Shown: positions 11,448 through 43,421 of the stretch, in pieces
How the letters are laid out: every line of letters starts with the position of its first letter
Position numbering within the stretch: the stretch's first letter is position 1
From: a virus
Strand: one strand, 5' to 3'
Length of the DNA stretch: 64,000 nucleotides
IMG/VR virus record: IMGVR_UViG_3300005721_000046
The notes under the pieces: generated by a model
What the model was told of the DNA's origin: nothing
Databases searched by the model: none
Seen by the model: only the letters and a program-made list of their open reading frames with translations
Position numbers and translations under genes: made by a program

Positions 11448-12157
11448 TTATCCGTTGATGCGGCTCTTGTTTTTCAAAGCGTGAAGACCGTCGCGATCAA
11501 ATTCCGGATCCAATCCTGTCTCTGTGTCGATAACAATCTCGTTTGAAACCGCTTCGTCCCACACATAAATTTTTCCAATTTGATTTGATAAATGGTCATA
11601 AGTTGCTTTAAAAGCATCGCCGCTTTGAGCCGACGCAAGTAACTGAAGCTGTCGAAGCTCCTTTTCGGCTCGTAATCTGTCGATCTGATTACTCAAAAAC
11701 CAAAATCGACGAAGTGGTGTTTGTAATAGGTCGTCAAAACCTATGCCGTATTCTTTGAGAACTCTGGCGAAGAGAAATCCAAAATCTACTGATTTCAGTC
11801 CGCCTTTTGGGCGTTTCCCGATTTTTTTGCCTCGGTTATTTCTTCTTCATCGTCCGACACAATTTCACTATTTGCGCCGCGAGCTGTTTCGGCCAATGTA
11901 CGAAGTTGCTTGAACGTCCATTTCCGCACCTGTTCGGCTTTGAGTGTCGGAAATGCACGCAACACTATTCCGATCATAACTTCCACCTCTTGCCCCGCCG
12001 TCGCGTTTACACCAATGGAGTCAATCGCTTTCATGTTTTCAATAAAATCTGCGACCGTTGCTTCTTTCATTTTGTGCTTCGCGCCGTCGACAATAAGTTC
12101 GACCGGAGTTGGGTTGCGAATCTCGTCCAAGTTAATAATTTTGGTTTTCGTGGTCAT
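11448..12157 (-). CDS. tail assembly chaperone G-T fusion produced by programmed -1 frameshift
   Basis: The -1 frame is open from the A AAA AAA heptamer (plus-strand T7 at 11822-11828) through to 11448, joining the 82-aa ORF. This is the conserved phage G/GT arrangement just upstream of the TMP. Confidence 0.6.
11795..12157 (-). CDS. tail assembly chaperone G-like (120 aa)
   Basis: Small acidic protein immediately upstream of the TMP. An A7 slippery run lies at its 3' end. Confidence 0.65.
   Translation of the reverse strand: MTTKTKIINLDEIRNPTPVELIVDGAKHKMKEATVADFIENMKAIDSIGVNATAGQEVEVMIGIVLRAFPTLKAEQVRKWTFKQLRTLAETARGANSEIVSDDEEEITEAKKSGNAQKAD
11822..11828 (-). other. slippery heptanucleotide A AAA AAA (programmed -1 ribosomal frameshift site)
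   Basis: The minus-strand reading 'GAG GCA AAA AAA TCG' is seen directly. The downstream -1 frame has no stop until 11448. Confidence 0.6.
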
Positions 12158-12228
12158 AATTTTCTTTACACTGTTAATGATTTAGCGAAATGCGCGCCCG
12201 CATCTTTTTGTGGACGCGCAAGTGAGTT

Positions 12229-13038
12229 TTATTCTTTACCAACCGAGAATAGACGACCATCTTCGCGTGCATAGCCTTTGAAATCGGCCTTATAAACACG
12301 TTCATTGTCTGTTTGATAGGCAAAGTTGAGCGCTCCAGGGCAGGCTGCGCGATAAACAGTGAAGTCGTCCTCGCCATTTGTACCAATCGGGCGCAATACG
12401 AGTGTTTTAGCCATATTAAGCAGATTGATATTAACGCCGGTCGAAACGATCGCGGCGGCCTTTGTCGGATTCACGCCGCCGGTTAAATCCGTGGTATTCA
12501 AACCTGTTCCGACTTTAGAAATTTTGCCATTACCGATTGTACCACGTTGTTTAGCTGTAATAGTTACAACAGCGTTATTGGCTTCTGCGGTGTAATCGAT
12601 CTTTGCTGCGTTAATTGCGGCGGTAAGTTTAACGGCTGTTTCTTCCGGCGTAGCGCAAATTTCAATCTCGTGATCATTTGTAGGAAATGATTTAAAAGTG
12701 AAAATGGTGTCATTGATAGAAACTTCGTTGCTATCAACAATAGGATCACCGGTAAAAGAGATCGTACCTGTTGCTTTTACGCCATCACTGACGAGTTTTG
12801 AACCCGGCATGATAGCAACCAAATTTTCAAGAGTGGTCTCCGCAAGTGGGGTTTTTACAGTTACGGTACGACCTGTAATCAACTCGGAAATAGGTGTTTC
12901 GCCGAACTGATCGACTTTTACATCATGGGTGGTTGTTGCGACTTCGACTTCAACCCCGCCTTTGGTGTAGCCGAGATCATTTCCGTCAAAAAGAATAGTG
13001 CAAACGCCAAGTTTGACGTTCTCAGTGGACGATGCCAT
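12229..13038 (-). CDS. major tail (tube) protein (gpV-like)
   Basis: 269 aa and Thr/Val-rich with a beta-rich pattern. Position immediately upstream of G/T and TMP. The hairpin motif in the leader is shared with the capsid gene. Confidence 0.65.
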   Translation of the reverse strand: MASSTENVKLGVCTILFDGNDLGYTKGGVEVEVATTTHDVKVDQFGETPISELITGRTVTVKTPLAETTLENLVAIMPGSKLVSDGVKATGTISFTGDPIVDSNEVSINDTIFTFKSFPTNDHEIEICATPEETAVKLTAAINAAKIDYTAEANNAVVTITAKQRGTIGNGKISKVGTGLNTTDLTGGVNPTKAAAIVSTGVNINLLNMAKTLVLRPIGTNGEDDFTVYRAACPGALNFAYQTDNERVYKADFKGYAREDGRLFSVGKE

Positions 13039-13168
13039 TGCAAGCTCCTTGTTACATACAGTCTGATTATTTTGTTATGAAAATTGTGGCCGGAACGACG
13101 ACATCGTTTAATCAACGGCAACACAAACGATATAATAGCCTAACTTTACGAATAATTCCAGAAAAAAA

Positions 13169-13186
13169 GGCAAGTGATTACTTACC
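13169..13186 (-). promoter_or_regulatory. hairpin motif copy 3 (GGCAAGT-N4-ACTTACC), about 130 nt upstream of the major tail gene
   Basis: Same 30-nt context as copy 2 (AAAAGG[T/C]AAGT..ACTTACCATT.AAG). On the minus-strand RNA the stem keeps pairing through a G-U wobble and is followed by U7. Confidence 0.5.
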
Positions 13187-13300
13187 ATTCAAGGCAACAA
13201 ACCAACTTGAATTTGTTGTGAATAGATTGAATTGCGTTGGCGATTATTTGAATTTCTGGTTATTACACGCCAAACAAAATTTAATAGAGATTATATTATT

Positions 13301-13708
13301 ATGAAATTATTCCGAACTTCACTTTTAATCGCAATTACCTTTATACTGAACATAACGTCGACCTTCGCCGGGACTATAGCCGATGATGACGAATTAAAAG
13401 ATGAAATGGAAATGTTTTCCAGAGCAATCGGATTAGCAGATGCTATGGCCTCGAACTGCTCCAATGGAGAGGCTCTATCACGTGTAAAAATCGTGCGAAC
13501 TAGAGGTCTTGAGCGCTTTGCTGAAGCGGGGTTTCCGCAAAAAACGGTAGAGAAATTTGACGATTTTATTCAAAAACGTATTAAAACAGAGAGCGACAAT
13601 ATCGGTTCTAGATGTAGAGAGGATTCTCTAAAGGTTTATATGAGAGGGATAGAAATGGAATATAAACTTTTGGAGAACATTCTTAGCCGTTATGTCGGTC
13701 CGCAATAA
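13301..13708 (+). CDS. small secreted protein (moron) encoded opposite to the tail operon
   Basis: Start placed at the 'MKLFRTSLLIAITFILNITSTFA|GT' signal peptide. AT-rich upstream region. It is the only plus-strand gene within the 22-kb minus-strand structural block. Confidence 0.55.
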   Translation: MKLFRTSLLIAITFILNITSTFAGTIADDDELKDEMEMFSRAIGLADAMASNCSNGEALSRVKIVRTRGLERFAEAGFPQKTVEKFDDFIQKRIKTESDNIGSRCREDSLKVYMRGIEMEYKLLENILSRYVGPQ

Positions 13709-13723
13709 AAACGTTTGACTTAT

Positions 13724-14116
13724 TTAAATAACCGCAAAGACCGTTTGAAAATGTTGCGAAAATTCAATTCCATTTCCTTTAAGTCGTGGAAACTGTACAG
13801 GCAATGCCTCAGGATAGAACCGAATTATCTTGCAATTTTTCGCCTCATGTAATTCAGGTTTTTCTACAATCAACTCGTTACAAACTTTGTTAGCTAGTAT
13901 TTCGCCTTCAACCGGATCGACATGTCGGGTTATGATCTGAATTCGCGTTTTATGCCAGTCCTTGATGTAAGGATCGATTTTAATACCAGTGAGAGGGGGC
14001 TTGATCATAACGCCTATAGATACCTCTGCCGGCATCATTGCGTTGAACAAGGTTTTTCCCGGAACGACCAAGCCGGATTCGGTTAATTTGCTAATCAAAA
14101 CGTCTTCTATAATCAT
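13724..14116 (-). CDS. tail terminator / tail completion protein (gpU-position)
   Basis: 130 aa. Position between head-tail joining genes and the major tail gene. No diagnostic motif. Confidence 0.4.
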   Translation of the reverse strand: MIIEDVLISKLTESGLVVPGKTLFNAMMPAEVSIGVMIKPPLTGIKIDPYIKDWHKTRIQIITRHVDPVEGEILANKVCNELIVEKPELHEAKNCKIIRFYPEALPVQFPRLKGNGIEFSQHFQTVFAVI

Positions 14117-14119
14117 TAT

Positions 14120-14614
14120 TTACCGACCTAACGTTGATACCAAATTAAACATCTGCTTCTGCAGCTTTTCCTCTTCTTCTTCCGCTGCACGCGAGAGAAA
14201 ATGCGAACCCACCTTATCGCCATTTGGCCCAGCCATTTTAGCCAAGGTTCGAGGTCCGGGTTTATAAGCTTCGTAGTTTTCATGAATAATCATGGCGTAT
14301 TGATCAAGATTGACGTCCGCCATGAAAACTTCGCCGTTATCGCGGTCAACAACCTGTCCGCCAACAACAACGTCAATTTGCAGGCGTCCATTAATACCGG
14401 TTCTGTCAGACTCCACGCGGATAGAGTTTTTAAGTGCACCCGTATCTTCGGGTACATACTCCTTGGCGGTTTTTACAATGTTATTTGCGGCTCTGCGCAT
14501 TTGTCTACTTGCGCCATCAACAGCTCGCTCGCCTATTTGACGCAACTCAAGTCGGTTTTCTTGCAAACCTGTTACGCGTACTTTGCTCACGTTGCTACAA
14601 TCTCCAAGTCGCAT
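14120..14614 (-). CDS. head-tail joining protein, HK97 gp10-like family
   Basis: 'GALKNSIRVE' motif typical of the HK97 gp10 family. Position. Confidence 0.45.
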   Translation of the reverse strand: MRLGDCSNVSKVRVTGLQENRLELRQIGERAVDGASRQMRRAANNIVKTAKEYVPEDTGALKNSIRVESDRTGINGRLQIDVVVGGQVVDRDNGEVFMADVNLDQYAMIIHENYEAYKPGPRTLAKMAGPNGDKVGSHFLSRAAEEEEEKLQKQMFNLVSTLGR

Positions 14615-14934
14615 TCATAATGATCAATTTTTCCGTCAACGGAACGACGGGCAAATTTTGAAATAATCTTGTAACGAACTCCGTCGAAATCAAAACGATC
14701 ATTGATTTTTACGTCAACATAATTAGCAATGAGTATTTTGCCTCTCTCAACCGTCATTTCGTCGGCCGATCCGCGAGAGGCGGAGGAGTCGGCGCGTACC
14801 GAGGTTTTCTCCGCGCCTATTTCGAGATTTACAATTGCAAACGGACAAACACGAACCGGACTGTAAATTTCACGAGCGTGAACGTCATATCCTTCTAAAG
14901 TCGATATTGCACCAACGAGATTAGGCTCAAACAT
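14587..14934 (-). CDS. head closure / head-tail adaptor protein
   Basis: 115 aa. Position and size. Confidence 0.4.
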   Translation of the reverse strand: MFEPNLVGAISTLEGYDVHAREIYSPVRVCPFAIVNLEIGAEKTSVRADSSASRGSADEMTVERGKILIANYVDVKINDRFDFDGVRYKIISKFARRSVDGKIDHYECDLEIVAT

Positions 14935-14941
14935 TTTTACC

Positions 14942-15730
14942 TCATGTTCGTGCTACGGTCATGCGGTAATAGATATAACCTGCAAGCGCTGTTAGCGTTT
15001 GATTTGAAACGCCATAATCGAGCTTGTCCGGTCGTAAAGTTAGCCAGCTCTCGCCGATTTTTTCCGTAATCACTCCAGAACGACGCTTTCGCGCAATGCT
15101 ATCGCCTTGAAGCAATTCATTCGCTTCAATAAGCTGGGCTCTACGTAAAACCTTTTTAAAGTGTGTGGGAAACTCGTTAAAGTCGTCGCGTGTGAGCTCT
15201 TGCCACGTGTGAGCGAGAATAACATATTGCTTTCCAATTGGCCTGCCGTAGTTATCAAATCGATCAAATCGCATCGGGATGGAAACCAATCGATTATACG
15301 CCTCGATCAACGCGGATTTTTTCTGCTCTTCCGATGCCGCAGACCAACCAAGCAGATTGGGTTGATTATTAGCTTCAATCTCGGCCGCTTCATAAGTTTG
15401 AAACGTATTACTCATAATCACCAGTCGCTGTTCTGTCTCTATAACATAGGAGAGTGACTGATATATCGACCCATGCGCGGTGACGAGTTCGACACGGAGA
15501 ATTCTGGCCGCTTGTAGTTCTTCGGACTGTAACTTGTTAAAAGCCGAAGATATAACGATCGATTTTTCCTTGTCCGTCTGTTCAAACGGTAAAGAACCAA
15601 AGTCTACGATTTCGTTATCCTCGCCATCAAAAAGCGTGGCTTTGATTTCGGTCGGTTCAATAGAACTGCCATTTCTGTCAACGAAATTAACGACTACCTC
15701 GACGGTGCTATCTTCGACATAGTACTTCAT
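14942..15730 (-). CDS. putative head-tail connector / head completion protein
   Basis: Position between capsid-proximal genes and adaptor genes. No motif. Confidence 0.3.
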   Translation of the reverse strand: MKYYVEDSTVEVVVNFVDRNGSSIEPTEIKATLFDGEDNEIVDFGSLPFEQTDKEKSIVISSAFNKLQSEELQAARILRVELVTAHGSIYQSLSYVIETEQRLVIMSNTFQTYEAAEIEANNQPNLLGWSAASEEQKKSALIEAYNRLVSIPMRFDRFDNYGRPIGKQYVILAHTWQELTRDDFNEFPTHFKKVLRRAQLIEANELLQGDSIARKRRSGVITEKIGESWLTLRPDKLDYGVSNQTLTALAGYIYYRMTVART

Positions 15731-15735
15731 TCAGA

Positions 15736-16374
15736 TTATTCGCTTTCAGGTGTGTTATTTGACGCTTTTACATCCGAAACATCAGCAATCTCTGAGTTAG
15801 AAACATCGTTATTGGCCGCGTTAATGGCTTTCGAGAGATCGCCAGAAATCGCTGCCTGTTTAAGTGCGTTGTTTTCCGCAACTTCCTTTTCAATGGCACT
15901 ATCGATGCGTTTTTTACGTTTTTCGAGGAACTTTTCTTGAGCTGCCAAGATCATGTCGATGAGTGCCGGGATTGAACGATGTTTGACGTCCCAAATTTCG
16001 GCAGCTTCACGCAGGCCTTTAATACCTTCTTTATCGGCAATCGCTTCAAGATTTTCTCTGGTGTAAAAAGTGGGCTGCTTGCCTGACTCCATTGCTATAG
16101 AGAGATCCTCTCGTGCTTTTTCTGTCTCTGTTTGCCGAGAAAGCGGAGCATTTACCGGTGCATGAATTGTATTCGTGCTTAGCAATTTATAAGCGGCGCT
16201 ATTTCTACTCTCATTACCATCCACATCAATTTCGATCATTTCCATGCCGATTGATAGTCGACGTCTGATGTGGTCGGGTACAAACTCGTCCGAAACGCCA
16301 TTGGTAAAATGAACAACACCAAGGGAGCCAGTGTAATTTGCCCATTGCGGCGCTGTAATCTTTAATTTTTTCAT
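15736..16374 (-). CDS. hypothetical structural-module protein
   Basis: ORF directly downstream of the capsid terminator. Acidic C-terminus. Confidence 0.35.
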   Translation of the reverse strand: MKKLKITAPQWANYTGSLGVVHFTNGVSDEFVPDHIRRRLSIGMEMIEIDVDGNESRNSAAYKLLSTNTIHAPVNAPLSRQTETEKAREDLSIAMESGKQPTFYTRENLEAIADKEGIKGLREAAEIWDVKHRSIPALIDMILAAQEKFLEKRKKRIDSAIEKEVAENNALKQAAISGDLSKAINAANNDVSNSEIADVSDVKASNNTPESE

Positions 16375-16384
16375 ATGTTGTAAA

Positions 16385-16418
16385 TCCTCAAAACGAAAAT
16401 GGGGCGATAACGCCCCAT
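16385..16418 (-). terminator. rho-independent terminator downstream of major capsid gene
   Basis: Minus-strand RNA GGGGCG-UUAU-CGCCCC followed by AUUUUCGUUUUG, immediately after the capsid stop (16451). Confidence 0.7.
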
Positions 16419-16450
16419 AGTCGCTTAGATGGGGCTTTAAGTCCCATTGA

Positions 16451-17353
16451 TTATACGTTGGTTACGCCCTTCAGTCGTGCAAGACTATGAGTAGCTTTCA
16501 AAGCTGCGCCACAATACCAACGAAGACGCCAACGACGTGCATCGCGTTTTTCGAGAAGACCAAGATCGTCTACACGAATACCTGCTGCGTTACCGCCATA
16601 AAGACCATGGAAGCCATCAATCTCGTTGAGGCGCAAAGCATAAACAGACGTAGTCGCTGTGGCCGAACCCTGTTTTTCATCTGCTGGGATGAAATCGTTG
16701 ATAATGACCGGAGTACCGTCATAACATTTGATCGGCATACCAAAGTTTTTAATCATCATTGTTTCGGCTGTATTACCACCATGAATGCGATTGAGTTCGC
16801 GGATTGCTCGCCAAGTACCCGAGCGCATCATAATGACATCAGCACCGAGCTTGACCATGTCCTTGAGCTCATCAAGAGCGGCATACGAAATAGGATTGCC
16901 GTCGACACCTGCATCAAGCGTTTGATCGGCTGTAACAAGTTTACGTACGCCATCGAACTGCTTCGGATTGACACTTGTGTCACCTGTAACGAGATTCATC
17001 CTAAATTTGCGCCCCAAGCCTTTGGCTTTGGCTGCAAGCTGAAGAGCAACCTGATCGTTAAGTTGCGACTGCGTTTCGGCAGTGAAATTGTCAATATCGA
17101 CCTGTCCGGCCAGCACCTTCAACTTTGTTTCGACCTCGACGTATTTTGCTGCCGACTCTTCGATATCTTCATAAGCGTCATACCAATCGCCGGTCGGCAA
17201 TTCGCCTTCGCGGACATAGCTGTATACTTTATCTTTTGCTTGCACGAAGGGCACGAGTGCAAATAATTCGTCACGGTCAATGATTTCTTCGATCACGCCA
17301 CGCTGTTTGTCTTCCACAGATAGCTTTTCAGCCTCTTCGACGAGAAGCGCCAT
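16451..17353 (-). CDS. major capsid protein (HK97-fold, T7 gp10-like pattern)
   Basis: 300 aa following the scaffold gene. 'DQVALQLAAKAKG' resembles T7 gp10 'DQVALGKEIIAALTKA'. Strong terminator downstream. Confidence 0.8.
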   Translation of the reverse strand: MALLVEEAEKLSVEDKQRGVIEEIIDRDELFALVPFVQAKDKVYSYVREGELPTGDWYDAYEDIEESAAKYVEVETKLKVLAGQVDIDNFTAETQSQLNDQVALQLAAKAKGLGRKFRMNLVTGDTSVNPKQFDGVRKLVTADQTLDAGVDGNPISYAALDELKDMVKLGADVIMMRSGTWRAIRELNRIHGGNTAETMMIKNFGMPIKCYDGTPVIINDFIPADEKQGSATATTSVYALRLNEIDGFHGLYGGNAAGIRVDDLGLLEKRDARRWRLRWYCGAALKATHSLARLKGVTNV

Positions 17354-17473
17354 GTGTTTTCTCCTTGAAATTCGCCGAAAGACGGGAAAGACCGCAAAGC
17401 GGCTTTGAAACGTCAGAAATGAGGTTCGGAATGAACACCCGATAAATCGGCTATTATGTTTTTGGGGGGTGGT

Positions 17474-17491
17474 GGTAAGTTATAACTTACC
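17474..17491 (-). promoter_or_regulatory. hairpin motif copy 1: perfect palindrome GGTAAGT-TATA-ACTTACC in capsid leader
   Basis: Seen directly. About 120 nt upstream of the capsid start. Additional small palindromes nearby (ccgataaatcgg, ccgcaaagcgg). Confidence 0.55.
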
Positions 17492-17581
17492 TCTGGCTAT
17501 ATAAAAGACGTGCGAAATCACGCAATAGGCCAGACTACAGCGTGCAGTTTAGCCTAAAACGGAATAAATCTCAAGAGAAAA

Positions 17582-17599
17582 GGTAAGTTAATACTTACC
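17582..17599 (-). promoter_or_regulatory. hairpin motif copy 2: GGTAAGT-TAAT-ACTTACC just downstream of scaffold stop
   Basis: Seen directly. Shares a 30-nt context with the copy at 13169. Confidence 0.55.
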
Positions 17600-17611
17600 A
17601 TTTAAGCATTT

Positions 17612-18505
17612 TTAAAGCTTTTTAGAGCTTTCAGACTCCAAACCCGCGAATATTCGTGATTTTCCGAACAGATTTTGTCCGCCAGTTTTGTTTTGAGTTT
17701 TTAGATTATCAGTGCGAGAGCGTGCGCCTTCTTTGATCTTTGAACGCACCAATGTGTCGCGATCAGGATCCGCCTCAATAATTTTCTGAAAGGCCGTATC
17801 GAAGTTATAAGGATTGCCGGAACCATCAATCAACGGCGCGCGATTTGCAGCGCCAGCAGGTTTATCATAAGCAATCACTTGGCCGTCCTTAAGATCGAAA
17901 TAAGATCCATAAAGCGCACGAGCTTTCGTGGGTGTCAAAATGAGATTTTCGTTGATATATTTGGAATTTGCGAAATTCGCGCCAAGAGTTAAATTATCAA
18001 TCGTTGCCGCGTTTTGATCAAGTTTCTGTTTTAACTCGGCAATTTCTTTTTCTCGCGCCTCAATATCGCGTTTGTGTTCTTCGGCCATCATTTTTTTGGC
18101 CAGCTCGAAATCGCCTTTAGCTTCGGCCTCTTTTTGCTTTGCCTCCTGCTCGCGTTTCTTCAGATCGCGAACTTCTTTTGGCTCAATGCCACCATATTCG
18201 TTAATCTTTGCCCGCAACGCATCGAGCTCGCTTTGTGCTTTGCGTAGCTTTTCTTTCTTTTCCATCACTTCTTTAAGAAGTCCGTCATCTTGTTTGGGTT
18301 TATCAGAAGTTTCCTTTTGATTTTCCTGTGACGTTTTTTGCGTGTCGACTTTGCTGTTCTCAGCCGCTACTTCTTCGACAACGTTTTTTGAAGCCGTTGC
18401 AGTCTGATTTGCGGTATCCGCTACAGTCTGATTTGTACCTGCGCCATTAACGGTTTCAGACGTTTTAGCTTCGGCATGTGATGTTGCGGTATTTTCGGTA
18501 GACAT
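17612..18505 (-). CDS. capsid scaffolding protein
   Basis: 297 aa, highly charged with K/E-rich coiled coil ('EKKEKLRKAQSELDALRAKINE...'). Lies between the portal and capsid genes. Confidence 0.75.
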   Translation of the reverse strand: MSTENTATSHAEAKTSETVNGAGTNQTVADTANQTATASKNVVEEVAAENSKVDTQKTSQENQKETSDKPKQDDGLLKEVMEKKEKLRKAQSELDALRAKINEYGGIEPKEVRDLKKREQEAKQKEAEAKGDFELAKKMMAEEHKRDIEAREKEIAELKQKLDQNAATIDNLTLGANFANSKYINENLILTPTKARALYGSYFDLKDGQVIAYDKPAGAANRAPLIDGSGNPYNFDTAFQKIIEADPDRDTLVRSKIKEGARSRTDNLKTQNKTGGQNLFGKSRIFAGLESESSKKL

Positions 18506-18615
18506 ATTACACTCCTGCCCGGTCTCTTCTTGGGCTGTTGAGGGGGTCGGTATCTTGACCCGTTGCTGTTTTTAGCTCCAACGGTCTCTTGTTGAAGCTA
18601 AGTTAAAAGGATTAT

Positions 18616-20199
18616 TTAGTCGGTGTCTTTTGTGACTTCGCCTTGGCGATTAGGCGCTGAAGCCGGTTTTGCGCTTGAAGGTATAGCCGCGCTGTCGGAA
18701 TTCGACTTGTCATCTAGCCAACGATTGATGTCGGCTTTCAGTTTTTGTTTTATATCTTCGCTAATTTGAGGAAAGATTTTTGAAACCAATGAACGCATTT
18801 GTTCGCGTCTGACTTCTTTCGGAGCGTCGATTTGACCTAATGTTTGAGCTAAAACGACGTCGTCGGCCATGCTTGCAATGTCAAAAGTGGTCGGATAGGT
18901 AACGAGTTTTTTATCGACGCTATTAATACCGCGCCAAGCGCAAGCGGTCGCAACGATCCAGTTTTCGACGTTTTCACAGCTCTGAGCTTTTGCCATCAAA
19001 AGCGAGTTTACTCGCTCGAAGTCATAAGCCTTGGCAACGCCGGAAGAGTTATCAATACCGACAGCATTGTCCTCTTTTGTGCGCTCACCAGCCAAGCCGA
19101 TCGAGTGATAAATTTCGTTGATGATTTTTTCAACAACCGTCAGAATAATGCTGGCTTGTTTGGGGTCGGGAGATAGAAAAAATGGTTGTGACGAAGAACC
19201 CGCGCCGCCATCATATACAAAAACGCGCTTCGTTCCCATATCCAGCGTCTTCTGATAGAGATCATCTCCCGGCAACATCGATTGACTTGGTATTGCAAGC
19301 TGCGAAAAAGTCTGGTCCTGAATGATTGCGTCGAGGTTCGACATGTAGTTTGCGGCAGCTCTATCAAGATAAGCCACGTCATCAATTAGACCGGATACGG
19401 TGTATTGATCCTCGGAGATTGTGTGGTCGGAAAACTTTACAGGTACGAAGCCGAGTTTGTTTTCTCCCTTGTCTTTTAAGACAACCTTACGTTTTTTTGT
19501 CGGCTGATTTGTTTTTGGATCTAAAACTTCCTCTTGAGTTTCAATTTCCTCAAACAACATCCATTCAGTGCGTGTCCACAAACGAACTCTTTCCTTGACT
19601 TCGTTTGACGAATTGAAAGGATCGGCGTCATCGCGTACGACCTCGCGTAATTTTACCCAGAGTAGTTCGCCGTCGCCGTCTTCATCCCAGGCATAATCAA
19701 GAATATCAGGCGCTTTAACAACGTATGCATAAATCTTTCCTTGGGAGTTTTTTTCGTCCTGAACAGTACGATTATCGCCTGTGACTGGCGTAAAATTGTT
19801 GTCAACCACAACAGCGACACGACCAAATATGCTGTTTCCAACTGATACCTGTCGCATAAATTGCGAGATATCAAGACCGCCAAGCGTCGTCTTTTCCCAG
19901 AGTTGCCTGATTACGTCATTCGCTTCGTCAAAATTGCGCTCGATCTGACCTTTGAAAAGATATTTTTGGACAAGCTCGACAACCTCCCTCGTATGATTAA
20001 AACGATAGGAGCGTTCAATGCGTTCTCTGTATTCTTTATCGCCCTCTTTCAAATATCGGAAAATGTTCGTGTCGAACCAATCTCGACCGCCTTTATACGT
20101 TGCCTCCAAAAAGGCCCAGTGCGCAATCATACTGGCGTAATGCGGATGTCGATTGTGATATATTGAAGATAGAGCTTCGTCACTATAAGAATTAAACAT
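18616..20199 (-). CDS. portal protein (T7 gp8-like head-tail connector family)
   Basis: 527 aa. Position between TerL and the scaffold gene. Confidence 0.75.
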   Translation of the reverse strand: MFNSYSDEALSSIYHNRHPHYASMIAHWAFLEATYKGGRDWFDTNIFRYLKEGDKEYRERIERSYRFNHTREVVELVQKYLFKGQIERNFDEANDVIRQLWEKTTLGGLDISQFMRQVSVGNSIFGRVAVVVDNNFTPVTGDNRTVQDEKNSQGKIYAYVVKAPDILDYAWDEDGDGELLWVKLREVVRDDADPFNSSNEVKERVRLWTRTEWMLFEEIETQEEVLDPKTNQPTKKRKVVLKDKGENKLGFVPVKFSDHTISEDQYTVSGLIDDVAYLDRAAANYMSNLDAIIQDQTFSQLAIPSQSMLPGDDLYQKTLDMGTKRVFVYDGGAGSSSQPFFLSPDPKQASIILTVVEKIINEIYHSIGLAGERTKEDNAVGIDNSSGVAKAYDFERVNSLLMAKAQSCENVENWIVATACAWRGINSVDKKLVTYPTTFDIASMADDVVLAQTLGQIDAPKEVRREQMRSLVSKIFPQISEDIKQKLKADINRWLDDKSNSDSAAIPSSAKPASAPNRQGEVTKDTD

Positions 20200-20304
20200 A
20201 AAAACCTGACGAAGATATGGGAAAATAACGACATGATGTCGTTTAAATGACCGCTATAAGGTCAAACGTGGAAAGTATACGTTATAATATAACGGTTTGC
20301 AAGC

Positions 20305-21639
20305 TTATAACGATATACCAATAATGTTTGATTGACGCATCGGATGTCTGAAATCGACATAATAACCAAGAGCATCGGCTGCGTGCTCAACACCTTTGGC
20401 TTTGTCGACTTCGCGAGATCCTTCTTTATAAGTTGTTTGTTCAAGCGAGTTGATGATACCGGAACAGTTGGCGTCAACACGCAGTCTTATTTCGCCGTTG
20501 GCGGTAAACAACAATCGATTGACCGAGTTTACGCGATCTTGCACGGCCGGATGTTTGCGCTTGAAATAAATGTTTTTAAAACCGGCTTCCCGCAAAATAT
20601 CAAGCGACGTTTCGCCACGATCATGATTACGGTTATTGCCTGCCGGGTCAGGATAGATGGAAATCTGGTTGAGATAACGATAATAGCGCCGTGATAGCTC
20701 ATCGGCGGTTTCTTGAACGTTACTTCCAAAAAGTATCGCCTCGTCAACGACCCAGATTTCACCATCTGGCTGTTCTTGCAAAACGATAGACGACATCGGG
20801 TCGATGTTAAAGTCCATGCCAATGTAAATTGGTAATTTGGGATTAAACGGATAATCACCAACGTGTTTTGTTCTATCAAACGCGTAATAGACGCGACCGC
20901 TCATATTGACGAAAGAGGCTTCAAACTCTTGAGCAAAGGATTTTGGATCCATGTCATGCCGACGGGCTTCGATTTCAGAGCGCGGCACAAAAGGAGAAGA
21001 GCTTGTGGGAAATTGCCAGGACTTCCATTCGTTCTCGATAATCTTTCCGCGACTATCTGTAATATGGTCCGGCCGCTGACCTAGCTGATAAAGATCGTAA
21101 AGCCAGTTAAAACTCTTTGGCGTACCAATGAAAATAGCCCGGCCGCGCGTTGTGGCGAGTGTCGGCTGTATAACCTCTTGCCATGTTTCTTCTTTCATGT
21201 CCTGCGCTTCGTCGAGCACAACCAGATTAAGACCTACACCACGTAAAGTATCCGGTTTATCAGCGCCTTTCAAAACAATACGTGAGCCATTGACAAACTC
21301 CATCGACATTCGAGTTTCGTTTGTCTTTTTAATCCATTGATAAGGAATAATACGTTTAAGACTATCCCACATCAGATCACGAGCCATTTGATATGTTGGT
21401 GCAATATACCAAATAAGCTGATCCGATTTTTCCGCTGAAGCCACTATAATTTCGGTCGATGAAAGCTTGGTTTTACCCCAACGTCTACCCGCCACAACAA
21501 CGCGAAAGCGATGTTTGTCCTGATAAACCTTTTTCTGTAACGAATGAAGTTTGCAGGAAAAGTTATTTAGTGTCGACGACGTCATTCTTTTCCTCAAATG
21601 ATTTAATTTCCGCAACAAGGTCGTCAGTGGTTGCGTCAA
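20305..21639 (-). CDS. terL: terminase large subunit
   Basis: Walker A 'VVAGRRWGKTKL', Walker B 'LVVLDEAQD', C-terminal nuclease region. Start may be the internal Met near 21585. Confidence 0.85.
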   Translation of the reverse strand: MTQPLTTLLRKLNHLRKRMTSSTLNNFSCKLHSLQKKVYQDKHRFRVVVAGRRWGKTKLSSTEIIVASAEKSDQLIWYIAPTYQMARDLMWDSLKRIIPYQWIKKTNETRMSMEFVNGSRIVLKGADKPDTLRGVGLNLVVLDEAQDMKEETWQEVIQPTLATTRGRAIFIGTPKSFNWLYDLYQLGQRPDHITDSRGKIIENEWKSWQFPTSSSPFVPRSEIEARRHDMDPKSFAQEFEASFVNMSGRVYYAFDRTKHVGDYPFNPKLPIYIGMDFNIDPMSSIVLQEQPDGEIWVVDEAILFGSNVQETADELSRRYYRYLNQISIYPDPAGNNRNHDRGETSLDILREAGFKNIYFKRKHPAVQDRVNSVNRLLFTANGEIRLRVDANCSGIINSLEQTTYKEGSREVDKAKGVEHAADALGYYVDFRHPMRQSNIIGISL

Positions 21640-27665: not shown

Positions 27666-27697
27666 GCATAGAAGGAAATAAGGAAATAGGCATATAA

Positions 27698-27737
27698 GCG
27701 AGTAAGGAAGTACGGATTTCTTTAGTTCCTTACTCGC
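27698..27737 (+). promoter_or_regulatory. 12-bp perfect inverted repeat GCGAGTAAGGAA/TTCCTTACTCGC with a 16-nt loop, directly after the helicase stop and next to GGAAATAAG repeats
   Basis: Seen directly. Possible terminator or operator. Confidence 0.45.
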
Positions 27738-28499: not shown

Positions 28500-28609
28500 T
28501 AAGGAAATAAGCATATAGGCATCTACTTTTTTCTCTAAATAGGGAATTTCCTTGCGGTATTTGCTTATTTGGTTATGTTTAAGGCATAGATTCGTATTAG
28601 GGAATTACA

Positions 28610-29263
28610 ATGCCTTTAATCATTGCCTGTTTGTCACAAAAAGGCGGAGTGGGTAAAAGCACTCTTGCCCGACTTATTGCCAGAACCTACGCAGTCGGTG
28701 GATGGTCGGTAAAAATTGCCGACTTTAACACGACACAGTTGAGTTCGTATAATTGGGCGCAAATTCGCAACGGTGAAGGCCATAAACCAAAAATCGATTC
28801 AGAGCCTGCCACCTCGCCTTCTCTTCTCAAACGCGAAAAATATGATCTGGTTGTCGCTGATGGTCGACCGGACTCCGATCAATCAAGTTTGGAAATCGCG
28901 CGAATAGCTGATCTGATTGTTATACCAACCGGTCTACCGCTAGACGACTTGATGCCACAGTTGCGCTTTGCCAATGAGCTCGTTGAAAAAGGCATAGATC
29001 CTCAAAAAATTCTTTGGGTGCTCAACAAGATCACCGATAGCATAACTGCGGTTGCAGAGGCGCGCGATTATATTCGTCAGGATCAGGATTATCGCATCGC
29101 CGCTCAAGAGCTCATGCACAAGATCAGTTACCAGAAAGCGCAAAACCATGGACTGGCTTTATCGGAAGTTGGTCGTAAGGTTGGTTCGTTGGAAGAAAAG
29201 GCTGATCTATTGGCGGCCGAAATCGTAGAGCTTGTTACCAAGTTGACGGAGGATAAAGAATGA
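28610..29263 (+). CDS. parA: ParA/MinD-family partition ATPase
   Basis: Deviant Walker A 'SQKGGVGKST'. 217 aa (small, type Ib size). Confidence 0.8.
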   Translation: MPLIIACLSQKGGVGKSTLARLIARTYAVGGWSVKIADFNTTQLSSYNWAQIRNGEGHKPKIDSEPATSPSLLKREKYDLVVADGRPDSDQSSLEIARIADLIVIPTGLPLDDLMPQLRFANELVEKGIDPQKILWVLNKITDSITAVAEARDYIRQDQDYRIAAQELMHKISYQKAQNHGLALSEVGRKVGSLEEKADLLAAEIVELVTKLTEDKE

Positions 29264-29514
29264 CTGAAGACGTAAAAACTAGAGCAGCAGTTCCGCCGCG
29301 TTCAAACAAAAGCTTTTTGCCACACGAAATCACAGCAAAGAAAGCAGGCGCAGCAAATAACATGCGCTCGGAAAAGACCGTTAAGACGTCTTTGCTGATT
29401 ACCGAAGAGCAACATCGCGATATGCGCTTGGCACGTGTCGAGTACAATCGGCCAGTCAATGACATTCTGGTTGAAGCGTTTTACCAGTGGCTCGATCGGC
29501 AGCGTAAGAAATAA
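29260..29514 (+). CDS. small ribbon-helix-helix-like partition partner (ParG-like)
   Basis: 84 aa overlapping the parA stop by 4 nt. Basic N-terminus and C-terminal helix pair typical of RHH centromere-binding proteins. Confidence 0.5.
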   Translation: MTEDVKTRAAVPPRSNKSFLPHEITAKKAGAANNMRSEKTVKTSLLITEEQHRDMRLARVEYNRPVNDILVEAFYQWLDRQRKK

Positions 29515-30069: not shown

Positions 30070-30180
30070 TTTAATCCATGCAATAGAGGGGAAATGCGCG
30101 CATATCATTTGCGCTTAAGGCGACCGAATTCTCAAAGTCGCTTTTGTACTTTTAATCCCAACTTTCGATAAAATCAATAA

Positions 30181-30268
30181 ATAAGGAAATAAGTGAATAG
30201 GGGAATAAGGAAATAAGCGAATAAGCGAAGAGGGGAATACGGAAATAAGGAAATAGGTAAATAGAGGA
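30181..30268 (+). repeat. array of about 9 GGAAATAAG / GGGAATAAG / CGAATAAG direct repeats
   Basis: Seen directly. Upstream of the HslV-like gene. Confidence 0.7.
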
Positions 30269-30470
30269 GGACAGAAACCTCAAGGATTGCCGGGGTTTTT
30301 TTAAAGATCGAGCAGGGGAGGTTTGGATTTGAAAGTGTCGCGGCAACTGGAGGCATCCCCGAGATGCTTATTGCGTTGGGCTAAGACTTTCGCTATAGTA
30401 TATTTATCAAGAGAACAGAAAAACAAAATATCTTGATAGTAAAACAACAATTTAATGAAAGAGAAACAAA

Positions 30471-32489: not shown

Positions 32490-32658
32490 TTAAGGAAATA
32501 TGTACATAGGCAAATAGGCCGATAAAGAAATAGGTAAATAGGGAAATAAGCACATAAGGAAAGACACACGCCCGTGGGATCAGCGGCCAAGGTGCAAGCG
32601 GCCAAGGTGTTAGTGAGGATAAAGAAATAAGGAAATAAGGAAGTAGGTAAGTAGGTAC
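32490..32658 (+). repeat. GGAAATA-type repeat arrays (two clusters) plus GCGGCCAAGGTG x2
   Basis: Seen directly, including 'GGAAATATGTACATAGG', which resembles the palindromic operator half-site. Confidence 0.6.
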
Positions 32659-32689
32659 AAAAAAAAGACGCTGACCGAAGCCAGCGTCA
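32659..32689 (-). terminator. rho-independent terminator after gene 32831-33640
   Basis: Minus-strand RNA stem GACGCUG/CAGCGUC followed by U8-9. Confidence 0.7.
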
Positions 32690-33893: not shown

Positions 33894-34745
33894 TTAGATA
33901 TCTCTAACGCACTTAAAATGCCTTAAGTGCGTTGTTAAAATCACTTCTCCTAAGAATTCGTTGAGACCCAAAATATTATAGTGCTCAACTATTAACTCGT
34001 CGGTGTCGTCACGAGCCGTTATCGCTAAAACCGAAGGAACACGGTGTTTTTCAAAAGCTAAGGCGTAATGTTCCTCTCTGTATTGCGGCTCTTTTACGGT
34101 CTTTGGGGTTTTTCGTAAAACCGTCTTCGATTGAACCGTTCGATAATAAGCGGCTTTCTGCATAACTTCGATTAAATGAGCGCGGTCGCTTTCACTTAAC
34201 TCACTTAGCTTTTTGTTTTTTTCAAATTTTGAAACGAGATCCTTGAGATCGTTGACTGTCGAAAGCTTATTCTTTTTGCAATATTCTTCTGAGGCTTCTA
34301 AAAGCGTTAATAATGTCGGATCACAACGTTGTTGACATTTGAAGTGTTCAATTTTTTCTAGTGAGGAATTTTTAAAGAATTTATTTAGCTTTTCAATCGA
34401 GATAAATTCGGCTGTTAAATCGGCGATGGCTTCCTGGGGTTTATGATGCATTTTTACAAAATAAACAGGAAATTCCATCAGGCGTGGACGGCTGATGGCG
34501 TAATAGATAGCCTCTTTCGTTTTTTCATCGAGTATTACTTCCTCAAAATAAGCTGCGTCTTTTATATTGAGCAGCGTTATGTTTGTATCCCAGTCGCCTT
34601 TTAATTTACGTCGAACGCGTCTCTTGTAGGAATCGCCGGCAGATAATATTAAATCCTCGGCTGTAACGAGATCGTAGATTTCGCAAAAATCCTCCGATTG
34701 TCTCAAGAGATCCATATAGAGAGTCGGTGACTTGCTGTCAGGCAT
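33894..34745 (-). CDS. hypothetical protein, paralog family B member 1 (two internal repeats)
   Basis: Aligns along its length with 35023-35868 ('LEKIEHFKCQQRCDPTLLTLLEASEEYCKKNKLS' versus 'EEKLQNFKCLKPCACATVFIELLKSSEEYCKEHELS'). Start chosen at the Met aligning with the paralog start. The longest ORF starts at 34841. Confidence 0.55.
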   Translation of the reverse strand: MPDSKSPTLYMDLLRQSEDFCEIYDLVTAEDLILSAGDSYKRRVRRKLKGDWDTNITLLNIKDAAYFEEVILDEKTKEAIYYAISRPRLMEFPVYFVKMHHKPQEAIADLTAEFISIEKLNKFFKNSSLEKIEHFKCQQRCDPTLLTLLEASEEYCKKNKLSTVNDLKDLVSKFEKNKKLSELSESDRAHLIEVMQKAAYYRTVQSKTVLRKTPKTVKEPQYREEHYALAFEKHRVPSVLAITARDDTDELIVEHYNILGLNEFLGEVILTTHLRHFKCVRDI

Positions 34746-34831
34746 TTGTTTATTCGCTTTCTCAATCTCAATGTGTGAATTATTGATTGAATTGTAGCGA
34801 TCAATAATAACGCCTTCAAAAGGTATCGTAA

Positions 34832-34847
34832 GGAAATACATATTTCC
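34832..34847. promoter_or_regulatory. perfect 16-bp palindrome GGAAATACATATTTCC (operator-like) within a 45-bp conserved promoter block
   Basis: Seen directly. Identical palindrome and flanks at 35936-35951. Confidence 0.6.
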
Positions 34848-35022: not shown

Positions 35023-35868
35023 TTACATATATCTAAAGCATTTAAAGCATTTCATCTGCTCAGTAGTCGCGTTACTCATAAGATTACTGAACTCGAAAAC
35101 GTTATAATGTTTTTCTTCAAACTCATTTTTATGTTCAAGTAGCGATAAAACGCAAACCTCATGATTAAGAGTGCGTTCGAGATATGCAAAGGCGCGATGT
35201 CTAATGTCGTTATTTTCTTCGTCATATGAACATTCGTAAAACGCTGCATTTTTCATAATCTCGATTGCGTGATCACGATCTTCATTTAAAAACTGTTTCG
35301 TCTCGTCATATTTTTTACTGATCTTGTAAAAATCGTCATGCGTCGAAAGCTCATGCTCTTTGCAATATTCTTCAGAACTTTTTAAAAGCTCGATAAACAC
35401 AGTCGCGCATGCACAAGGTTTTAGACATTTGAAGTTTTGTAGCTTTTCTTCTGTTGCGTTTTCAAAAAACTTGTTGAACTCTTCAAGCGTAATATATTCG
35501 CATGTCAATTCAGCATATTCTTCTTCAGGTTTGTCATGAAGAATTGAACGATAGATACATGAAGGTCTATCATCGTTTTCGTGATAGCAAAAAGAATAAT
35601 AAATAACTTCATGTGTTTCTTTATTAATTGATTGCGCTTCATAATAAGCAGCTTCAATCATGAAAGACAGATCTGTCTCGAACTGACCGTAAGAGTAACC
35701 GTACTCATCATTTTCGTCATCAGAGTGCGTAAAAACTTCATGATGTTGTTTTTGATCTTCTACGTAATGAACTAATTCATCATAGTCAGTTAAATTATGC
35801 TGCACGCAAAACTTTTGAGACTTTTTCAAGAGTGCTAAATATTTAGTATCAGACATTTGCTCATTCAC
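35023..35868 (-). CDS. hypothetical protein, paralog family B member 2 (two internal repeats)
   Basis: See member 1. The internal duplication is visible ('KKSQKFCVQHNLTDYDELV' and 'KSSEEYCKEHELSTHDDFY'). Confidence 0.55.
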   Translation of the reverse strand: MNEQMSDTKYLALLKKSQKFCVQHNLTDYDELVHYVEDQKQHHEVFTHSDDENDEYGYSYGQFETDLSFMIEAAYYEAQSINKETHEVIYYSFCYHENDDRPSCIYRSILHDKPEEEYAELTCEYITLEEFNKFFENATEEKLQNFKCLKPCACATVFIELLKSSEEYCKEHELSTHDDFYKISKKYDETKQFLNEDRDHAIEIMKNAAFYECSYDEENNDIRHRAFAYLERTLNHEVCVLSLLEHKNEFEEKHYNVFEFSNLMSNATTEQMKCFKCFRYM

Positions 35869-35935: not shown

Positions 35936-35951
35936 AAGGAAATACATATTT
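35936..35951. promoter_or_regulatory. second copy of palindrome GGAAATACATATTTCC, 68 nt upstream of paralog B member 2
   Basis: Seen directly. Confidence 0.6.
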
Positions 35952-36009
35952 CCCTAAAGGCGTATATCCTTATATATTTAGGCGAATGTCCGGGAAATCG
36001 CGTATTAAT

Positions 36010-36444: not shown

Positions 36445-36560
36445 TCCGCTTACGTCCGTTCTTATTCGCTCTTATTCATTCTTATTCGTTCTTACTCGCT
36501 TACATTCGTTCTTGGTCACTCTTGTTGGTTCTCAGTTCGCTCTTATTCGTTCTTATATGC
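36445..36560. repeat. about 11 tandem copies of a 10-bp unit YTCTTATTCG (reverse complement CGAATAAGAR)
   Basis: Seen directly. The unit is the reverse complement of the GAATAAG motif found elsewhere. Confidence 0.75.
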
Positions 36561-41886: not shown

Positions 41887-42600
41887 TTAAGACCAATTTT
41901 GATCTTCTTCTATTTGCTTTTTTCTTATTTCGACAGCGCCCTTTAATCGTTCAATGAAGCGTTGCTTTGCCGTCATGATGTCATTACGCGGAAGAATAAT
42001 ATCTGAACCATCAAACTTGGCGAGTGTTTCTGTATAACGAATGGCGATATTCTTATAAGCGATAATACCGGAACCGGGTCGATAATCCTCTATGATCGAA
42101 AAGATATAAAGGAATGAACGCCGCGCTATTTTACGTTGTGCTATCGAAATAGCTTGGTTTATATCTAAAAATGGGCCGCCGCCAATGCCGTCGACACTTA
42201 GACATGGCTTATTAGACGTATCTCGCTGATGTTCTTCAATGTACCAAAAATAGCTTTCTGGCTTTTGTTGCCATTGTTTTTCTTTCTCTTTCGTTTTCTC
42301 GAACGCTTGTTTTAAAGCATAACAATCGCTTTGATTTAAATGATAACCCACGCAGATTTTTTTAACCACATCCGTAGGTAACGTTGTAGTTCCGGCTTCG
42401 AGCCAAGCCAGCAGTGATGCGTGTACGCCAGTCACTCTTTCCATGTCTTCAATACCATGCTTATGGGCCTTTCGTATCGTACGAATTGCAAGTCCAAAAT
42501 CTGTCGTCTCGCTTGGTATCTCGAATAAGCTGTCGCTGTTCTCGACGTTTAAGTCCCAACTCCAGTACCAATTAGTGCTCTTTTTATCTTTAATTGTCAT
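41887..42600 (-). CDS. XRE-family HTH regulator with novel C-terminal domain (paralog 1)
   Basis: HTH 'AIRTIRKAHKHGIEDMERVTGVHASLLAWLEAG'. Along-length similarity to 42726-43421. Confidence 0.55.
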   Translation of the reverse strand: MTIKDKKSTNWYWSWDLNVENSDSLFEIPSETTDFGLAIRTIRKAHKHGIEDMERVTGVHASLLAWLEAGTTTLPTDVVKKICVGYHLNQSDCYALKQAFEKTKEKEKQWQQKPESYFWYIEEHQRDTSNKPCLSVDGIGGGPFLDINQAISIAQRKIARRSFLYIFSIIEDYRPGSGIIAYKNIAIRYTETLAKFDGSDIILPRNDIMTAKQRFIERLKGAVEIRKKQIEEDQNWS

Positions 42601-42725: not shown

Positions 42726-43421
42726 TCAGGAATAAAACTGGTCTTGTTCTTGTTGTTTTTGCCTTATCTCAACAGCGTTTTTTAAACGTTCGATGAAGCG
42801 TTCCTTTGCCGTCATCATCTCTTTACGCTGAATAATACCTGAGGCGCTAGACTTGGCGAATGTTTCTACAAAACGAATGACGATATTCTTATAAGCAATA
42901 ATACCGGAGCCAGGTCGATAATCCTCTACAACCGAAAAAACATAAACGGTTGACGGCTGTACCACTTTAAATTGTGCTACCGAAATAGCTTGGTCAATAT
43001 CTAAAAATGGACCGCCGCCAATACCATTGTTGTTTTGCGAGGAGGGCTGATGTTCTTCAATGTACCAAAAATAACTTTCTGGCTTTTGTTCCCATTGTTC
43101 TTCTTTGATTTTTGTTTTTCGGAAAGCTTGCCTCAAGGCATAATCATCTTCCTGGCTTAATTGATAACCCACGCAGATTTTCTCATCGACTCCATAAGGC
43201 AATCTTACAATTCCGCTTTCAAGGCAACTCAGTAGGCGATAGTCGACATCGGTCAATCTTCCCATGTCGACGACGGTATGATTATGAGCCTTTCGTATCG
43301 TTCGAATTGCATGACCGAAATTCGTTATTTCACTTAGAATTTCAAATAGGCTGTCATTAGTCTTAAAATCCGAGTCCCAGTTCCAGTGCCAATTAGTGCT
43401 CTTTTTGTCCTTAATTGTCAT
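42726..43421 (-). CDS. XRE-family HTH regulator with novel C-terminal domain (paralog 2)
   Basis: Start set at 'MTIKDKKSTNW', which is conserved with paralog 1. The longest ORF extends to 43448. Confidence 0.55.
   Translation of the reverse strand: MTIKDKKSTNWHWNWDSDFKTNDSLFEILSEITNFGHAIRTIRKAHNHTVVDMGRLTDVDYRLLSCLESGIVRLPYGVDEKICVGYQLSQEDDYALRQAFRKTKIKEEQWEQKPESYFWYIEEHQPSSQNNNGIGGGPFLDIDQAISVAQFKVVQPSTVYVFSVVEDYRPGSGIIAYKNIVIRFVETFAKSSASGIIQRKEMMTAKERFIERLKNAVEIRQKQQEQDQFYS

Follow-up and report, generated by a model that had tools for sequence, protein, structure and literature searches.

Three palindromes before the capsid and tail genes of a phage genome, a probable relic of an operator system used across the lineage

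Analysis of a 64,000-nucleotide (nt) stretch of viral DNA, IMG/VR virus record IMGVR_UViG_3300005721_000046 (hereafter the window, at its full length), revealed that three copies of the hairpin-like motif GGYAAGT-N4-ACTTACC, lying 5' of the genes for the major capsid and major tail proteins, occupy positions at which related phages carry an 18-base-pair (bp) palindrome of their own. The motif is non-random, and in our preferred reading it is what survives in this genome of a palindromic operator system used across the lineage, perhaps also acting weakly as a terminator. With moderate confidence, we regard the three copies as this phage's version of the lineage's 18-bp operator for a putative phage-encoded, dimeric DNA-binding regulator, probably a repressor, arranged around the capsid and tail promoters.

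A pattern scan and direct reading of the letters both bear out the three copies of the original prediction, at 13169-13186 (GGCAAGTGATTACTTACC), 17474-17491 (GGTAAGTTATAACTTACC) and 17582-17599 (GGTAAGTTAATACTTACC), each given as it stands in the window. They are numbered as follows, H1 and H2 being the positions of the corresponding palindromes in related phages, described below.

17474-17491, minus strand: copy 1, at the H2 position of the capsid gene; GGTAAGT-TATA-ACTTACC, without a U-tract, 120 nt 5' of the capsid start codon.
17582-17599, minus strand: copy 2, at the H1 position of the capsid gene; sense sequence GGTAAGT-ATTA-ACTTACC, beginning 12 nt past the stop codon of the scaffolding gene and 6 nt from the predicted -35.
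13169-13186, minus strand: copy 3, at the H1 position of the tail gene; sense sequence GGTAAGT-AATC-ACTTGCC, with one G.U pair, 7 nt from the predicted -35.

The same three copies, and no others, were recovered with 0, 1 or 2 mismatches in the 64 kb, where chance would yield 0.00 exact matches and 0.07 matches at 2 mismatches; allowing 3 mismatches added one further match, at chance level. The window-wide count proposed with the original prediction thus gives three matches, none of them (0/3) within coding sequence, all being confined to the two intergenic regions that precede the genes for the major capsid and major tail proteins. The placement before these two genes therefore stands, as does the description of copy 3 as retaining a G.U pair on the minus-strand RNA and being followed by U7; the term leader does not apply to copies 2 and 3, which lie 5' of the predicted -35 and would thus be transcribed solely via read-through from upstream genes. 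All three palindromes span 18 bp in a 7-N4-7 geometry, with a different N4 in every copy and only one variable position among the 14 of the arms. The 18 bp are the only sequence that copies 1 and 2 have in common, and within them the arms are identical at 14/14 positions. Dyad symmetry, fixed half-site spacing, a free centre and multiple copies, the features by which an operator of a dimeric regulator is recognized, are all present. Covariation between the arms is uninformative within the window alone, which offers a single variant position.

The encoded capsid protein is 59-64% identical to those of the ~117 kb Rhizobium siphophages RHph_Y2_11, V1VFA-S and B1VFA, and most window genes, including those for a ParA and two ParB_N proteins, have counterparts of 35-76% amino-acid identity in the same order in V1VFA-S. 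Judged by these similarities, the window is a member of the ~115 kb alphaproteobacterial siphophage/phage-plasmid lineage that includes V1VFA-S and RHph_Y2_11. V1VFA-S and B1VFA were reported as phage-plasmid-like, with parA, parB and repC (PMC12509600), and relatives were met in genome assemblies of Ancylobacter and Phyllobacterium, where the contigs measure 114-118 kb, and of Roseospira, where the contig measures 96 kb; we infer that lysogeny in this lineage takes the form of a plasmid. The palindromic element is undescribed in the V1VFA-S/B1VFA genome announcement (PMC12509600) and in the literature searched. An exact-motif scan of IMG/VR returned 8 unrelated contigs without structural-gene similarity, no protein more than 68% identical emerged when metagenomes and genomes were scanned with the capsid protein, and megablast against phage records gave no match.

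In the relatives, the family site is an 18-bp 7-N4-7 palindrome, TMARTMA-N4-TKAYTKA (T[AC]A[AG]T[AC]A-N4-T[GT]A[CT]T[GT]A). In V1VFA-S the palindrome takes the form TAAGTAA-N4-TTACTTA and occurs 37 times; RHph_Y2_11 yields 34 exact sites and 44 with one mismatch, against 0-1 in shuffled sequences. Their spacing is fixed, their half-sites are conserved and the N4 is free (ATAT in RHph_Y2_11); they precede early, replication, partition and late genes alike. The scaffold-capsid region of RHph_Y2_11, V1VFA-S and most of 28 IMG/VR relatives has a common order, namely H1, CTTGnn (-35), -10, H2 (2-8 nt past the -10), leader and ribosome-binding site, and the tail gene usually has the same H1/H2 pair. 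Within a phage, H1 and H2 have one phage-specific core, such as TAAGTAA, TAAGTCA, TAAATCA, TCAATCA or TCAGTCA. The window copies occupy the capsid-H1, capsid-H2 and tail-H1 positions of this arrangement. Helical phasing between H1 and H2, measured by hand, was set aside: the centre-to-centre distance is 45-67 bp in relatives and 108 bp in the window, and the phase is not constant.

Family sites stand in three registers relative to promoters, in many cases 5' of the start point. The upstream type is H1, adjoining the -35. In the spacer type, a stop codon is followed by CTTGnn-N17/18-TAnnAT, with the palindrome filling the spacer and its last TA forming the first TA of the -10; in the relatives examined, such sites lie at the terminase-portal junction and a second time 3' of the capsid gene, where a GC-rich terminator overlaps the predicted start point, and they make up 25 of 156 sites against ~1 expected by a rough estimate. 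In the start-site type, which includes many V1VFA-S sites, the palindrome begins 1-4 nt past GCGCTATAA and ends at the Shine-Dalgarno sequence, so that the normal start point would fall inside the left arm. The promoter register is clear for the spacer-type sites of relatives, and in the window the gap to a predicted -35 is 6 nt for copy 2 and 7 nt for copy 3. The promoters and T-tracts concerned are listed below.

17546-17575, minus strand: predicted capsid promoter P1; CTTGAG (17575-17570), 17-nt spacer, CTAAAC(T) (17552-17546).
17576-17581, minus strand: T-rich tract TTTTCT, separating copy 2 from the -35; T-tracts follow H1 in most relatives examined.
17498-17526, minus strand: candidate second promoter P2, weak, read from the sequence; ATTGCG-N17-TATATA, ending 6 nt before copy 1.
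13132-13161, minus strand: predicted tail-gene promoter; CTGGAA (13161-13156), 17-nt spacer, CTATTA(T) (13138-13132).
13162-13168, minus strand: T7 tract, directly after copy 3.
20274-20303, minus strand: portal-gene promoter; CTTGCA-N18-TATACT, immediately 3' of the terminase stop codon, with the palindrome CGTTATAtTATAACG (20294-20280) in its spacer.

The alphaproteobacterial sigma70 consensus is CTTGAC-N17-CTATAT, which the predicted capsid and tail hexamer pairs fit. P1 was also found by a promoter scan as TTGAGA-17-TAAACT; it aligns with the tail-gene cassette and with the corresponding region of the closest relative (locus L003), and CTTG is kept at its -35 place in relatives. The tail-gene promoter was missed by the E. 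coli-type promoter scan and was identified from cassette alignments and the common TTAGGCTA. P2 is a weak proposal by analogy with relatives, in which H2 begins 2-8 nt past a -10. The context common to copies 2 and 3, put at 30 nt by the original prediction, is longer: the two align over ~62 nt, beginning 6 nt ahead of the palindrome and reaching the -10-like TTAGGCTA, and thus represent a duplicated cassette of palindrome, T-tract and promoter. Relative to the predicted promoters both palindromes are centred near -52, and copy 1 begins ~48 nt 3' of the predicted P1 start. The idea that TTAGGCTA marks late promoters throughout the window was rejected, its two copies both lying inside the cassettes and their count being no higher than chance. 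At the orthologous terminase-portal junction the promoter is conserved, with the family palindrome in its spacer in the relatives examined; the window portal promoter has the same architecture but a different palindrome (CGTTATAtTATAACG).

The original prediction favoured an RNA-level element over a DNA operator, a view that fails one of the checks proposed with it, covariation in related phages. Covariation was assessed on 115 of their sites, in which both arms fit the degenerate half-site, with right arms shuffled within each genome as a control. The arms vary independently: they were complementary at positions 2, 4 and 6 in 82, 95 and 100 sites, against shuffle means of 85.6, 94.8 and 101.7, respectively, and the positions flanking the arms gave at most a weak excess at one position. 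Fully symmetric sites numbered 61/115, and RHph_Y2_11 has a recurrent asymmetric consensus, TCAGTAA-ATAT-TGATTGA. Among the non-Watson-Crick pairs on the sense strand, 48 were of transversion type, 12 were A.C and 8 were G.U, which amounts to no excess of G.U in the 115 sites. An early impression of many G.U wobbles in the relatives' hairpins was dropped after this unbiased count; it reflected ascertainment bias, because the finder allowed G.U and no other mismatch. Independently conserved half-sites with fixed spacing and a free centre form the pattern expected of a dimeric protein on duplex DNA; from an RNA stem one would expect covarying arms and an enrichment of G.U pairs.

Locus L003, the closest relative (79% capsid identity), has its cassette duplicated as in the window and carries TAAGTAAANACATA at capsid-H1, capsid-H2 and tail-H1, the same three positions (5 matches, one of them a weaker copy within the spacer of the portal promoter, where 0.39 were expected). 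Compared column by column, TAAGTAAANACATA is the TAAGT-N4-ACTTA core of the window with a T-to-A change in the right arm, an unchanged left arm and no GG/CC ends. The change is identical in 3/3 copies and uncompensated, so that the stem is broken, the orthologous H1 sites of L003 pairing at 4/7 positions with an internal mismatch. Such a concerted, one-sided change argues for sequence recognition by a putative co-evolving factor and against a need for pairing.

Each window copy can nevertheless fold, as the original prediction supposed, into a 7-bp, AT-rich stem with 3 G-C pairs (-8.1 kcal/mol, z-score -2.3 to -4.3), and a terminator scan flags copies 2 and 3, in which the stem is followed by a U-tract; copy 1 has none. 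Since in copies 2 and 3 the palindrome is followed by a T-tract, they could fold as weak terminators in read-through RNA and may act there as terminators or insulators, a secondary and less certain role. RNase III processing is unlikely, because the stems measure 7 bp, short of the two or so turns of RNA helix that the enzyme requires. Folding of the 261-nt capsid intergenic RNA indicates strong structure (z -6.0). A 5'-terminal stabilising hairpin would be applicable only to copy 1, and only if the weak P2 were used. An Rfam search of 12000-21000 at E<=1 gave one chance-level match only, and RNAalifold of the capsid leader with L003 was uninformative, with two sequences only and unaligned hairpins. 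This phage's real terminators are exemplified by the following element, just before which relatives carry the family palindrome and the window has none.

16399-16418, minus strand: GC-rich strong terminator after the capsid gene, -20.7 kcal/mol.

As a separate observation, in the folded capsid intergenic RNA the U-tract/-35 segment UUUUCUCUUGAGAUUU (17566-17581) pairs with the Shine-Dalgarno region AAUUUCAAGGAGAAAA (17357-17373) on the minus strand; on this modelled fold the ribosome-binding site could be masked in read-through capsid transcripts and not in promoter-initiated ones. By-eye inspection of the sequence at the tail gene revealed no parallel.

Purely RNA-level hairpins, as put forward in the original prediction, are a less probable alternative, with copies 2 and 3 acting in read-through transcripts as weak terminators or insulators ahead of the promoters of the two most highly expressed genes, copy 1 as a stabilising or structural hairpin of the capsid leader, and the likeness among copies stemming from cassette duplication and an ancestral operator instead of a binding protein. 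The stem energies, the U-tracts and scan matches of copies 2 and 3, the sense-strand G.U of copy 3 and the z-score of the intergenic RNA all suit it, as do a window geometry unlike the family DNA site, the 11-20 bp stems with A/T-run flanks that H1 often forms in relatives, and the unrelated hairpins that L003 carries past the -10 in its capsid and tail leaders. It is opposed by the lack of covariation anywhere in the family and by the identical breakage of the stem at three orthologous positions in L003. Moreover, the stems are far weaker than that of the real terminator (-8.1 against -20.7 kcal/mol), copies 2 and 3 lie 5' of the predicted promoters, and copy 1, without a U-tract, has the arms of copy 2 despite unrelated flanks, which structure alone would not need.

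Under the operator reading, a regulator dimer would recognise the two half-sites on duplex DNA. The sites would bracket two sigma70-like, host-type promoters driving the major capsid and major tail genes, one site lying 6-7 nt 5' of each -35 (centre near -52) and a further site 3' of the capsid promoter. When occupied, they would hold both strong promoters off during the plasmid or prophage state or early infection, and their release would turn the capsid and tail promoters on together. Secondarily, copies 2 and 3 folded in read-through RNA might insulate the promoters from upstream transcription. The sequences show the copies with their positions and significance, their placement at the H1/H2 sites of relatives, the lack of arm covariation and the promoter register in relatives; the promoters themselves, protein binding, the direction of regulation and the identity of the regulator are inferred. 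In relatives, a 130-residue helix-turn-helix (HTH) protein of the Cro/C1 type (HTH_3) is encoded beside repC, with palindromes upstream and downstream in 11/13 loci, and is a candidate for the palindrome-binding protein, judged by this placement.

L032, 25341-25733: Cro/C1-type HTH candidate of V1VFA-S (gp105).
L077, 13397-13798: Cro/C1-type HTH candidate of RHph_Y2_11 (gp080).
L079-L089: further loci of the Cro/C1-type HTH candidate.

A match between HTH recognition helix and half-site type (SNPN/KNQN with TAAGTAA; TQSN with TCAxTxA) was not used as evidence, because with only two clades the correlation is confounded by phylogeny. In the window, two HTH_31 paralogs (41887-42600 and 42726-43448) are the regulator candidates.

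Several points weigh against the operator reading. Set in the same frame, the window half-site GGTAAGT does not match TMARTMA, the half-site of the family, and the TAAGT cores are 4 bp closer than in relatives, so that the protein-DNA geometry cannot be the same; presumably the specificity of the window protein changed along with it. There are three copies in the window against 34-37 in relatives, and the family palindrome is not found at the window's orthologous portal, post-capsid and par-region sites. No orthologs of the relatives' candidate HTH protein, sigma factor or repC were found in the window, outside which about 50 kb of the genome lies, and thus no cognate protein can be named. Repressor sites are not classically centred near -52, a second site is lacking at the tail promoter, and the sole deviation of copy 3 is the G.U pair noted above. 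Among relatives, the distance from H1 to the -35 is 4-10 nt, which fits a hairpin with a U-tract at least as well as a phased operator, and the extension of H1 to 11-20 bp perfect stems with A/T-run flanks in several of them is a terminator design. Finally, all of the evidence comes from sequence computation.

We rate as highly unlikely a double use of the 18-nt element by one phage protein, which would bind it as a duplex operator at promoters and also, where a U-tract follows, as a hairpin in nascent RNA. A single factor would in that case link repression of the late operons to their termination or read-through, which would explain why the terminator stems that precede the capsid and tail promoters throughout the lineage are made of operator sequence.

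The leftover possibility, that the copies have no current function and are what remains of the family operator system after loss of most sites, and perhaps of the regulator, in a low-GC sublineage, with cassette duplication keeping them alike, is very improbable. The reduction to 3 copies from the 34-37 of relatives, the family palindrome missing at the three orthologous sites named above and the position of copies 2 and 3 within a duplicated cassette are in its favour; yet the arms vary at 1/14 positions while the cassette flanks have diverged, copy 1 has identical arms without a common flank, and L003 retains the same three positions with its own concerted variant.

The window also contains 8-bp iteron arrays (AGGAAATA, 3-12 units each) at 27673-27712, 28502-28525, 30176-30271, 32493-32564 and 32622-32661 on the plus strand and at 46046-46085 on the minus strand; they lie ahead of the ParA operon, within it and between genes at several other places. 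The ParA homolog (28610-29263, plus strand) is 64% identical to V1VFA-S ParA and is followed by an 84-residue protein (29260-29514, plus strand) that is disordered towards its N terminus and strand-helix-helix-like towards its C terminus; V1VFA-S and RHph_Y2_11 both conserve it, and it has no Pfam match. Its sequence pattern suggests that it may be a ParG/omega-like partner, and the arrays are likely centromere or operator repeats for this small protein. V1VFA-S has 8-bp arrays of a different sequence (AGCTATCT), one of them upstream of its ParA. An iteron-built GGAAATA-CA-TATTTCC occurs at 34832-34847 and 35938-35953, each time just 5' of one of two paralogous, function-unassigned genes (33894-34841 and 35023-35868; 30% identical), and an intergenic tandem array of about ten 10-bp units (CGTTCTTATT) at 36447-36556 could represent another set of iterons or an origin of replication.

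The omega protein of pSM19035 and ParG bind short repeats in direct or inverted order, and the arms of the motif could by the same logic be variant units of AGGAAATA, the palindromes being inverted pairs (8-N2-8) bound by the ribbon-helix-helix-like protein at 29260-29514 beside ParA. Consistent with this, arrays lie near the par operon and elsewhere, the inverted pairs GGAAATA-CA-TATTTCC have the same 8-N2-8 geometry, GGTAAGTA is a unit inside array 32622-32661, and under an iteron matrix the arms rank among the best-scoring 0.13%, 0.7% and 2.6% of the window's 8-mers. This likeness was noticed post hoc and is statistically weak, and the ribbon-helix-helix fold, unconfirmed by Pfam, comes from a sequence pattern only. 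We consider the explanation scarcely probable, because the three copies have common departures from the iteron consensus (T3, G6), pointing to a separate specificity, and because V1VFA-S keeps its iteron AGCTATCT clearly distinct from its palindrome TAAGTAA-N4-TTACTTA.

The structural genes around the three copies, identified by PHROG/Pfam scans, are as follows.

18616-20199, minus strand: portal protein.
17612-18505, minus strand: scaffolding protein.
16451-17353, minus strand: major capsid (major head) protein (PHROG 212, E 1e-80; Pfam GP7).
13724-14116, minus strand: tail terminator protein.
12229-13038, minus strand: major tail protein with an Ig domain, 61% identical to V1VFA-S gp076.

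An opposite-strand open reading frame (ORF) lies between the tail-terminator and major-tail genes in the window (13301-13708, plus strand), in V1VFA-S (47059-47415) and in L003 (8016-8435); the three are non-homologous to one another, and those of the window and V1VFA-S begin in a signal-peptide-like manner. The position looks like an accessory-gene slot adjoining the promoter cassette. Elsewhere, the window encodes plasmid-style genes, namely a DUF1612/HTH_13 protein (47937-48983, minus strand), a tyrosine recombinase (49142-50239, plus strand), a ParE toxin (50249-50578, minus strand) and the two HTH_31 paralogs mentioned above (minus strand, 65% identical), a set that fits a phage-plasmid lifestyle. 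A phage-specific promoter-like class, TAAAGCCTTTT-ATACCGACA-TTCTCCaCG-N9-GCTATAAT, conserved over ~45 nt, has -10 hexamers at 43784, 42676, 41838 and 39461 (minus strand) and 27774 (plus strand), and also at 46278 and 47906 (minus strand); its members in the window are without a palindrome and are followed by CA-rich leaders. V1VFA-S has a similar promoter class, CTCCC-N12-GCGCTATAA, and the relatives encode a sigma-70 family factor. A second window-wide palindrome, built on GTTATA/TATAAC, was tried and discarded, as it showed no enrichment.

If the operator reading is correct, it offers an entry point to the regulatory circuit of the poorly studied large alphaproteobacterial phage-plasmids, in which one operator would stand at tens of promoters in relatives and would be reduced in the window to the capsid and tail promoters. 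It would define the gene set under one control, provide a binding site usable to isolate the regulator, and explain how structural genes are kept silent during plasmid maintenance. The case also carries a caution: where phage genes are highly expressed, a perfect hairpin repeated before them can turn out to be a DNA site, and shuffling arms within a genome is an inexpensive test that separates DNA sites from RNA hairpins.

Among known systems, copies 2 and 3 resemble intrinsic terminators in combining a stem-loop with a U-tract, copy 2 standing directly after a stop codon; they differ from them in their short, AT-rich stems, in the loss of pairing in L003 and in the lack of a U-tract after copy 1. 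The PeSLs (promoter-early stem-loop cassettes) of T4-like phages combine a stem-loop or terminator with a sigma70 promoter motif and are repeated beside variable genes; they are early promoters in hyperplastic regions, discussed as recombination points and not as operators (PMC4122927). The ~62-nt hairpin-plus-promoter cassette is similar to them in being duplicated in the window and paired also in L003, and its tail copy adjoins the slot of non-homologous opposite-strand ORFs in three phages. Unlike PeSLs, there are two cassettes only, they stand before conserved late structural genes, and the palindrome also occurs alone, as copy 1. A different parallel is offered by phage P22, where the Arc operator lies within the spacer of the Pant promoter, between -35 and -10; the spacer-type family sites and the window portal promoter are built in the same way, unlike the three window copies, which lie outside a spacer. 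In the phage-plasmid P1, the lytic operons are held off by C1 at many dispersed, asymmetric 17-bp operators. The lineage described here would resemble P1 in its presumed plasmid prophage and its scattered operators; there is no sequence or protein relationship between the two.

Another parallel is KorA of the IncP plasmid RK2, part of a global repressor network, whose 12-bp symmetric operator stands at seven promoters and falls into a perfectly symmetric and a degenerate class (PMC2665229). The present element differs from KorA and its operator OA in sequence and geometry (7-N4-7, 18 bp), in belonging to a tailed phage or phage-plasmid, in its three promoter registers, in having a cognate protein that is so far putative, and in number, with far more sites per genome in relatives and three sites only in the window. 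It is like the KorA/OA system of RK2/RP4 in being a short symmetric operator-like sequence placed at many promoters of one replicon in perfect and imperfect copies: there, a small HTH dimer coordinates maintenance with other functions, and here, the relatives have 34-37 sites, about half of them symmetric.

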